From an uncultured Gammaproteobacteria bacterium (GTDB lineage: Bacteria; Pseudomonadota; Gammaproteobacteria; CAVYTG01): a stretch of DNA of 64,000 bases. The DNA is taken from assembly GCA_963771515.1 (NCBI GenBank), contig CAVYTG010000001.1, positions 105,820-169,819 on the forward strand, read 5' to 3'. Shown piece by piece: positions 47,716 to 47,863 of the stretch. Every line of letters starts with the position of its first letter. The first letter of the stretch is position 1. Made by a program: the position numbers and the translations under genes. The notes beneath the pieces were generated by a model, which saw only the letters and a list, made by a program, of their open reading frames with translations, did no database searches and was not told the DNA's origin.

Positions 47716-47863
47716 CTCGTCATTGTGAGAAACGAAGCAAAGCTCGTCATTGCGAGGAGCGTAGCGACGCGGCAATCCAAGCCGGAGTTTATTGAAGCAC
47801 GTATCTAGGGTTTCTAGACAAACTTTTGTCTGGATTGCCGCGCTTCGCTCGCAATGACGGGGG
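47716..47863. mobile_element. Family-1 MITE (duplicated-head subtype) inserted in the atpG-atpD intergenic region inside the atp operon
   Basis: ctcgtcattgtgagaaacgaagcaaag + ctcgtcattgcgaggagcgtagcgacgcggcaatccaag ... ctggattgccgcgcttcgctcgcaatgacggggg. Confidence 0.75.

Follow-up and report, generated by a model that had tools for sequence, protein, structure and literature searches.

Most of the unusually long spacer between atpG and atpD of an uncultured gammaproteobacterium is probably an old, immobile copy of a composite MITE, in which a CGTC-tagged REP dimer is bracketed by IS66/ISBst12-type ends. The copy would be co-transcribed with the atp operon, and its net effect is probably neutral or slight. 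The element was analyzed in a window of 64 kb, which is the whole stretch of DNA under study and part of a 2.0-Mb genome.

The element in the atpG-atpD spacer

A complete atp operon lies on the + strand of the window, with its genes in the order atpI, atpB, atpE, atpF, atpH, atpA, atpG, atpD, atpC, followed by glmU (ORF list). Pfam searches of the window identified atpI, atpG, atpD, atpC, and glmU; the other subunits were taken from the Pfam hits of an identical contig (L001). The gap between atpG and atpD is the largest of the operon at 238 nt, while the others lie between an overlap of 4 nt and a gap of 116 nt (ORF coordinates). An earlier note on this DNA had placed the atpG stop at 47705 and the atpD start at 47944, with a 238-bp gap that is mostly repeat, and the ORF list agrees. 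The window has a G+C content of 40%, and the host AtpD is only 82 to 83% identical to that of named taxa (Cysteiniphilum, Caedibacter, Berkiella, Coxiellaceae). Upstream of atpI, about 560 nt (41971-42533) contain no listed ORF of 100 aa or more but do contain a solo REP arm (42082-42108). The features of the locus are as follows.

42534-42929, + strand: atpI (ORF list; Pfam)
46827-47705, + strand: atpG, ATP synthase gamma, 292 aa (ORF list; Pfam ATP-synt, 1.8e-100)
47702-47872, + strand: whole element, 171 nt, near-palindromic and non-coding, probably a decayed composite MITE (copy alignment; terminus mapping)
47702-47717, + strand: left outer terminus GTAAGATGCGTTCACT, a degenerate IS66-type GTAA end (compared with GTAACTGCTCCCCC and GTAACTACTCACCC)
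47716-47742, + strand: 27-nt partial duplicate of the REP head, CTCGTCATTGTGAGAAACGAAGCAAAG (direct repeat D1)
47745-47779, + strand: left CGTC-tagged REP unit (sequence; motif spread; apical-stem covariation; description in PMC3733652)
47780-47830, no strand: variable central region between the REP arms (inverted repeats I1 and I4; copy alignment)
47831-47859, - strand: right CGTC-tagged REP unit, inverted (CTCGCAATGACG, complementary to the left unit)
47860-47872, + strand: right outer terminus GGGGAGCAGTTAC, reverse complement GTAACTGCTCCCC (terminus mapping)
47873-47943, + strand: native atpG-atpD spacer, 71 nt, outside the element (length like the 64- to 73-nt spacers of relatives L002 and L003)
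47932-47937, + strand: atpD Shine-Dalgarno sequence AAGAGG, intact, in the native spacer
47944-49335, + strand: atpD, ATP synthase beta, 463 aa (ORF list; Pfam)
49345-49776, + strand: atpC, epsilon (ORF list; Pfam)

The note had marked the repeat as the 148 bp from 47716 to 47863. The repeat is real, but these coordinates cover only its core, and the element runs 14 nt further to the left and 9 nt further to the right. As claimed, the hairpin potential is strong. The element RNA folds end to end at -77.3 kcal/mol (z of -7.1), a value equaled by none of 200 shuffles, and the whole 238-nt spacer folds at -85.1 kcal/mol (z of -5.5). The native spacer to its right has no significant structure (z of +0.73).

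The core of the element is a head-to-head dimer of the left and right REP units (47745-47779 and 47831-47859). In the left unit, a CGTC tag precedes a stem that starts with AT, the apical mini-hairpin has the loop GTA, and the tail is CCA, so that the unit reads CGTC-ATTGC...GCAAT-CCA; the window copies have a CCA(G) tail. The right-hand CTCGCAATGACG is 100% complementary to 47745-47756 (inverted repeat pair I3). CGTC stands at 47745-47748 and, on the opposite strand, at 47856-47859, in both cases outside the helix in the pair model. The central region (47780-47830) is the least conserved stretch of the copy alignment, and a small local palindrome lies at 47813-47834. To the left of the dimer, the 27 nt of 47716-47742 are 78% identical to the adjoining next 27 nt. 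This duplication of the REP head is common to the atp copy and to the copies at 39237 and 63497, and it thus marks a subfamily. At the outer edges, terminal inverted repeats are present, with GTAAGATGCGTTCACTCGTCATTG... pairing with ...CAATGACGGGGGAGCAGTTAC. The left terminus was compared with GTAACTGCTCCCCC, the reverse complement of the right terminus, and with GTAACTACTCACCC, the termini of the metagenome copies described below.

The atpG stop codon TAA (47703-47705) lies inside the first 4 bases of the element, GTAA, where G is the third base of the final Glu codon and TAA the stop itself. The window accordingly reads GAG TAA at the end of atpG, compared with GAA TAA in its relatives, which end ...ATAGAATAA. 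Contig L001, an independent short-read assembly of the same organism, matches the atpG junction exactly and breaks off within the repeat at 47773, as is expected in repeated DNA.

Inner REP dimer and outer termini

The CGTC REP superfamily was described by Di Nocera, De Gregorio and Rocco in 2013 and includes Neisseria dRS3 and Rickettsia RPE-4 and RPE-6 (PMC3733652). Its units have an unpaired CGTC head (or TGTC or CCTC), a stem starting with AT, for which 8 to 9 bp and a loop of 4 to 5 nt are quoted, and a CCA tail, and they occur mostly as head-to-head dimers (PMC3733652). They lie between genes in the same direction or convergent genes, near the 3′ end of the upstream ORF, where the dimers form larger hairpins; their termini sometimes supply stop codons, and there is "apparently no dedicated transposase" (PMC3733652).

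One genome per species was scanned for the motif CGTCATTGCGAG-N(8-16)-GGCAATCC. Exact matches were found in at least 120 stretches of genomic DNA, and indeed more, from many phyla; hosts among the matches listed include Alpha-, Beta-, and Gammaproteobacteria, Bacillota, Bacteroidota, Spirochaetota, Chloroflexota, Babeliae, and Saccharibacteria. Each unit forms a hairpin 28 to 36 nt long, with a conserved base, a variable apical stem, and a loop that is mostly GNA. In 40 distinct 34-nt units, the apical stem covaries at four pairs, with 26 cells changed on both sides and a score reached by none of 500 shuffles; the model pairs in 91% of cells, compared with 21 to 50% for slid controls. All 40 arms have A-U at pair 5-32 and U-A at pair 6-31, positions that the search pattern had fixed. 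The stem model comprises 11 pairs, one mismatch, one bulge, and a 3-nt loop, and there are shorter classes with inserts of 8 to 16 nt. Units are arranged predominantly as inverted pairs but also as direct tandems and alternating arrays.

These features place the atp element with the CGTC superfamily: it has the unpaired CGTC, the AT stem start, the CCA tail, the head-to-head dimer, and the position 3′ of an ORF, and no transposase flanks it. The host taxa of the motif scan also overlap with those of the superfamily (Micavibrio, sphingomonads, Rickettsiaceae), and in one locus (L116) a dRS3-type unit, CGTCATTCCCGCGAAAGCGGGAATCCAG, stands beside a unit of the ATTGCGAG type. The core of the atp element is thus a CGTC-tagged REP dimer, where membership follows from the described features and the overlap in host taxa rather than from sequence comparison. 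It differs from the published families, which are found mainly in Alphaproteobacteria and mostly have no flanking repeats, in its gammaproteobacterial host, in a stem that, as modeled, is longer than 8 to 9 bp and contains an A-G mismatch and a bulged G, and in the bracketing of the dimer by GTAA...TTAC termini of about 14 nt with 8-bp target duplications. A full-text search of the literature with the motif and the peptides it would encode returned only unrelated primer matches.

Long tandem or alternating CGTC arrays were observed in seven of the scanned loci (L011, L027, L087, L090, L093, L098, and L112), with up to 14 heads in 470 nt (L093). CGTC clusters were called rare in the 2013 survey (PMC3733652). 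In an alphaproteobacterial MAG (L046, 3673-4732), two CGTC REP dimers flank a 197-aa ORF between sufB and sufC; these dimers possibly bracket an extra gene in a housekeeping operon.

No partner gene was found by the motif. All-against-all clustering of the ORFs of 120 loci returned only ABC ATPases, short-chain dehydrogenases, and response regulators, and Pfam searches of 107 ORFs within 400 nt of arrays returned housekeeping genes. Three pairs of inverted arms that lie 1 to 2 kb apart enclose ordinary genes instead of a transposase. A RAYT (REPIN/RAYT) system was rejected, as no Y1 gene flanked by REPs occurs among the window ORFs scanned; the Y1 family is also absent among the families listed for the 107 array-adjoining ORFs, and 8-bp duplications do not fit HUH/Y1 transposition.

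The outer layer was characterized by a metagenome scan for the right end, CTCGCAATGACGGGNGANNAGTTAC, which gave 21 loci of 39 to 45% G+C (one of 59%). The elements in these loci are 105 to 147 nt long, with ends GTAACTACTCACCC...GGGTGAGTAGTTAC, and perfect 8-bp target duplications stand exactly at those ends in at least 10 copies. In locus L126, two MITE copies (463-609 and 1378-1524) interrupt an IS605-type tnpB, and in silico removal of both copies together with one duplication each restored an uninterrupted TnpB ORF of 389 aa. The 8-bp duplications and the restoration of tnpB indicate that the family transposes like a classical MITE. The host element in this contig (1-2315) is of the IS200/IS605 type, with an intact Y1 tnpA (1733-2149) and tnpB in three pieces; this tnpA belongs to the IS605-type element whose tnpB the MITE interrupted. 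The doubly interrupted tnpB locus recurs in L141, from another dataset, and L128, a shorter contig, has one copy.

The termini and the duplications resemble those of a known IS family. IS66-family terminal repeats start with GTAAGCG or GTAACCG and are flanked by 8-bp direct repeats (PMC11946415, PMC12888890). ISDge4, of the ISBst12 group, has the terminal repeats GTGACTACTCAGCA and GTAACTGCTCAGCA and likewise an 8-bp direct repeat (PMC12898284). The first 10 nt of the reverse complement of the right outer terminus are identical to the ISDge4 terminal repeat, GTAACTGCTC (PMC12898284). At the level of the family, the MITE termini GTAACT(A/G)CTCA match 10 to 11 of the first 11 positions, and the duplication is also 8 bp. 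ISDge4 and other ISBst12 and IS66 elements are autonomous, about 1.5 to 3 kb long, and encode a DDE transposase, whereas the present elements are non-coding and 105 to 172 nt long.

Scanning 28 ORFs of the window (64 kb of the 2.0-Mb genome) revealed no transposase, the loci examined contain no IS66/ISBst12 transposase with matching ends, and no GTAA...TTAC pair with an 8-bp duplication lies 400 to 4,000 nt apart in the loci examined. When 89 ORFs of the metagenome loci were searched against NCBIfam, the interrupted TnpB was the only mobile-element family among the best 25 families listed. A plasmid search for the element gave only a REP-like match in Novosphingobium. Judging from the termini and the length of the duplication alone, the mobilizing enzyme is most probably an IS66-family DDE transposase supplied in trans.

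The nearest published architecture is that of Coxiella burnetii QMITE2 (Wachter et al. 2018, PMC5896051), a MITE of 150 to 190 bp with a REP core, terminal inverted repeats, and direct repeats of 7 to 11 nt that vary in sequence. QMITE2 likewise lies mainly in 3′ UTRs and intergenic regions, has shorter derivatives like bare REPs, and includes old copies conserved in position (PMC5896051). The likeness is one of architecture, as the QMITE2 core is a GTAG-type REP and an IS1111 target (PMC5896051) and the core here is of the CGTC type.

Copies in the window and empty sites in relatives

The repeat is dispersed through the window. A 19-mer from the atpG-atpD gap has 9 matches in the window, compared with 0.01 expected, and the 12-mer CGTCATTGCGAG with up to one mismatch has 17, compared with 0.16 expected. 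BLAST and alignment resolved these into 5 full, 2 truncated, 2 mini, and 1 solo-arm copies, which, besides the atp copy, are as follows.

63497-63669, - strand: sister copy of the duplication-bearing subfamily, between mlaD and the next + strand gene (alignment, terminus mapping; Pfam for mlaF, mlaE, and mlaD)
39237-39408, + strand: sister copy of the duplication-bearing subfamily, 172 nt, between hemF and tRNA-Arg(CCG) (BLAST, alignment)
27953-28100, + strand: sister copy without the 27-nt duplication, 148 nt, between a methyltransferase gene and zapA (BLAST, alignment)
5119-5266, - strand: sister copy adjoining a truncated copy (BLAST, alignment, terminus mapping)
About 1216-1286 and about 5322-5382: truncated copies
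7159-7214, + strand: internally deleted mini copy, 56 nt, with an intact 8-bp target duplication, CTATAATT
55484-55519: internally deleted mini copy
42082-42108: solo arm

The copy at 63497 is placed much as the atp copy is. It sits at the expected mlaD-mlaC junction, between operon genes (mlaD at 63042-63500, the next + strand gene from 63871), and mlaD takes its stop codon (63498-63500) from the terminal GTAA of this copy, with the GA|GTAA register seen in atpG. Downstream of it lies a 43-aa fragment that is signal-peptide-like and possibly MlaC, with no match in Pfam.

The age of the family can be read from the copies. Those in the window are 59 to 80% identical to one another, and the atp copy is 64 to 75% identical to its sisters, in contrast with metagenome subfamilies that are 95 to 99% identical. 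The flanks of the atp copy agree at only 2 of 8 positions, and within 35 nt of its arms there is no direct repeat of at least 7 nt. No full copy in the window has kept a target duplication (agreement at 1 to 2 of 8 positions); an intact one survives in the window only at the 7159-7214 mini copy, with CTATAATT at 7151-7158 and 7215-7222. The low identity and the loss of duplications from full copies indicate that the family is old in the host genome. By its sequence, the atp copy is old and decayed and probably now immobile.

Several other observations were made on the copies and their neighborhoods. The mini copy at 55484-55519 is a near-perfect palindrome of 36 nt with two REP heads, TGTCATTGCGAGCGAAG-CA-CTTCGCTCGCAATGACG, between a convergent sigma-factor gene (54441-55472) and hpf (55629-55931); it takes the place of a terminator hairpin yet has no T run. 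At 5119-5382, two copies stand back to back, the right arm of the truncated copy (about 5322-5382) ending where the 5119-5266 copy begins, which suggests nested insertion or recombination between copies. To the left of two MITE copies, a stretch of about 220 nt is present twice with about 90% identity (1255-1475 on the - strand and 27765-27985 on the + strand; start GAGTCGCTTCTGAAGA). It is either a repeat family of its own, longer than the first, or a segmental duplication that took the MITE along. Integron attC sites and CRISPR arrays were rejected as identities of the repeat: cassette arrays, spacer arrays, and R''/R' core sites are all lacking, and the copies are scattered.

Other genes in the window include a 143-aa type IV minor pilin (5433-5864, + strand) that matches ComP_DUS, a DNA-uptake-sequence receptor (4e-15), and this hints at sequence-specific DNA uptake in the host. 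A 398-aa protein (17629-18825, + strand) strongly matches indoleamine 2,3-dioxygenase (IDO, 1.7e-97), a family not known to be common in bacteria, and its gene adjoins that of an MFS transporter. A giant ORF of 2,354 aa occupies 19829-26893 on the + strand.

The earlier note had proposed comparing the atpG-atpD spacer in related genomes. In the three closest atp loci on record, whose AtpG proteins are 85, 84, and 80% identical to that of the host, the spacers are 64, 73, and 21 nt long, and the repeat is entirely absent from them. The end of atpG falls at one and the same codon in the window and the three relatives, and GTAAAAAGAGGTAAAAAATG, 20 nt around the atpD ribosome-binding site, is invariant in the four. 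By length, the 71 nt to the right of the element (47873-47943) correspond to the whole spacer of the relatives. One of these relatives (L002) carries the element family elsewhere on its contig. The short, repeat-free spacers, together with the presence of the family in L002, indicate that the element is a lineage-specific insertion and that the family is resident in the clade. The spacers align poorly, because the relatives are only 80 to 85% identical in AtpG, and the pre-insertion sequence is not reconstructible. We infer transposition into this exact atpG site from the family and from the empty sites of relatives, and not from the copy itself.

A 601-aa "AtpD" (P0122, locus L146) on a wastewater contig from ENA was rejected as a near relative, since it is a chimeric assembly of another organism. 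Its first 240 or so and last 364 or so residues align to overlapping parts of AtpD, which points to a duplicated segment and thus a database artifact. The spacer of this locus is 100 nt long, GC-rich, and unrelated to the element.

The description of the repeat as a MITE insertion is thus borne out by the short, repeat-free spacers of relatives and by younger members of the family with GTAA...TTAC ends, 8-bp duplications, and precise in silico excision. The note had missed the CGTC REP dimer in the core, the age of a copy that has no duplication, and the overlap of GTAA with the atpG stop codon.

Expected behavior in the operon and meaning

It had also been suggested that the palindrome acts as an attenuator or internal promoter that shifts the stoichiometry of the beta and epsilon subunits. 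The sequence lends this no support, as neither a promoter nor a terminator was found and the native spacer and Shine-Dalgarno sequence are intact. In a transcriptional attenuator, the hairpin would make polymerase pause or partly terminate, and atpD and atpC would be transcribed less than atpA and atpG. The hairpin is indeed very stable and in the transcribed orientation, and a T-rich stretch, TTTAGATTTTTTAT, lies about 20 to 30 nt downstream of it. However, what comes after the end of the stem at 47872 is GTTGAAAGTTTG and not a T run, and a scan for intrinsic terminators (hairpin plus T run) called none in the spacer. Attenuation would also run against the stoichiometry of the enzyme, which needs three beta subunits per gamma and would be given less atpD than atpG. 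Further, the copy has stayed in place long enough for its duplication to be lost, and a sister copy is placed alike after mlaD, between operon genes. Attenuation is therefore unlikely.

A plain REP dimer, deposited by whatever mechanism spreads CGTC REPs and only incidentally ending in GTAA...TTAC, would not be a MITE at all. Across phyla, CGTC units do lack consistent flanking duplications and GTAA ends, they also occur in tandem and alternating arrays, and the atp copy has no duplication. What makes this reading improbable is that all five full window copies run about 14 to 20 nt past the REP arms to GTAA...TTAC and that exact 8-bp duplications stand at those ends in younger relatives and in the mini copy at 7159-7214.

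An internal promoter, by which the element or its junction would create a start site that drives atpDC independently, is very unlikely. Outward-facing promoters are carried by Correia elements and similar MITEs, and a -35-like TTGAAA is present at the right junction (47874-47879). This hexamer, however, is part of the native spacer, outside the element, and the best -10 sequence after it, TTTTAT at a spacing of 19, lacks the conserved A at position 2. A consensus scan found no sigma-70-like promoter in the spacer, with no + strand site reaching 9 of 12 matches. A dedicated cis-regulatory RNA for atpD (riboswitch or leader) might be suspected in a long, structured, untranslated spacer upstream of the gene, but this was dropped as next to impossible: Rfam gave no match at gathering thresholds in the whole window, nor any family at E values up to 10 on 47600-48000, the best matches being far below threshold, and the structured part is a dispersed repeat that stands by unrelated genes and is absent from the atp operons of relatives, which effectively refutes such an identity.

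In the composite-MITE reading that we prefer, the family would have spread by cut-and-paste or copy-and-paste transposition that leaves 8-bp target duplications, most probably using an IS66-family DDE enzyme in trans. One copy would have inserted at the extreme 3′ end of atpG in this lineage only, extending the spacer from about 70 to 238 nt, and would then have decayed, losing its duplication and diverging to 64 to 75% identity with its sisters. Within the atp mRNA, its transcript would form a hairpin whose stem pairs over about 60 bp and has the atpG stop codon in its base. With no T-tract or promoter, the element would cause no large termination or initiation of transcription. Any effect would be post-transcriptional at most. 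The hairpin may be a target of RNase III or a barrier to 3′ exonucleases, and such cleavage or blockage would make the stability of the atpIBEFHAG segment independent of that of atpDC; it may also impede ribosomes that terminate on atpG. The ribosome-binding site of atpD would be untouched, and the net effect would probably be neutral or slight.

These post-transcriptional effects are proposed by analogy with E. coli REPs and with Correia and ERIC elements. REP/BIME sequences of E. coli lie between operon genes, e.g., malE-malF, and are of the GTAG type and linked to RAYT transposases, unlike the CGTC-type element described here. The two are alike in having a palindrome just past the upstream stop codon, which by this analogy could block 3′ exonucleases and hinder terminating ribosomes. 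Newbury et al. reportedly found in 1987 that E. coli REPs stabilize upstream mRNA, and in 2015 Liang, Rudd and Deutscher are said to have found that REPs within about 15 nt of a stop codon stall terminating ribosomes. The Neisseria Correia and Yersinia ERIC elements are unrelated in sequence to the present family, and their target duplications differ, that of Correia being TA. They resemble it as MITEs of 100 to 170 nt with long inverted repeats that are co-transcribed and form long RNA hairpins (PMC10969869). Correia elements are cleaved by RNase III and ERIC elements expose an RNase E site, and both changes alter the levels of flanking mRNAs (PMC10969869); similar processing may occur here. 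It is also possible that a predicted hairpin of -77 kcal/mol inside an operon acts on expression more strongly than assumed. The age of the copy, its counterpart after mlaD, the CGTC dimers that L046 has between sufB and sufC, and the published position preference of the class suggest that the element is a tolerated, co-transcribed passenger.

The kind of element is already described: the repeat is common in bacteria, and a position 3′ of the upstream cistron is usual for its class. For the atp operon, there is little consequence, as the sequence has no sign of a promoter or terminator. For annotation, the length of the atpG-atpD spacer is due to mobile-element debris, and the stop codons of atpG and mlaD are supplied by the GTAA of the element; gene callers and comparative studies should anticipate stop codons from element ends. 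The transposase that moves CGTC REPs was left open by the 2013 survey (PMC3733652). By joining a CGTC REP dimer with IS66/ISBst12-type ends and 8-bp duplications, this family offers a testable transposase candidate for at least some CGTC REPs. We tentatively propose, as somewhat short of an even chance, that capture of a CGTC dimer between ISBst12/IS66-type termini, moved in trans by a DDE transposase, is one route of CGTC REP mobility. If this is true and general, CGTC REPs would owe part of their spread across phyla to hitch-hiking in MITEs that belong to ordinary IS families and not to a lost REP-specific enzyme.
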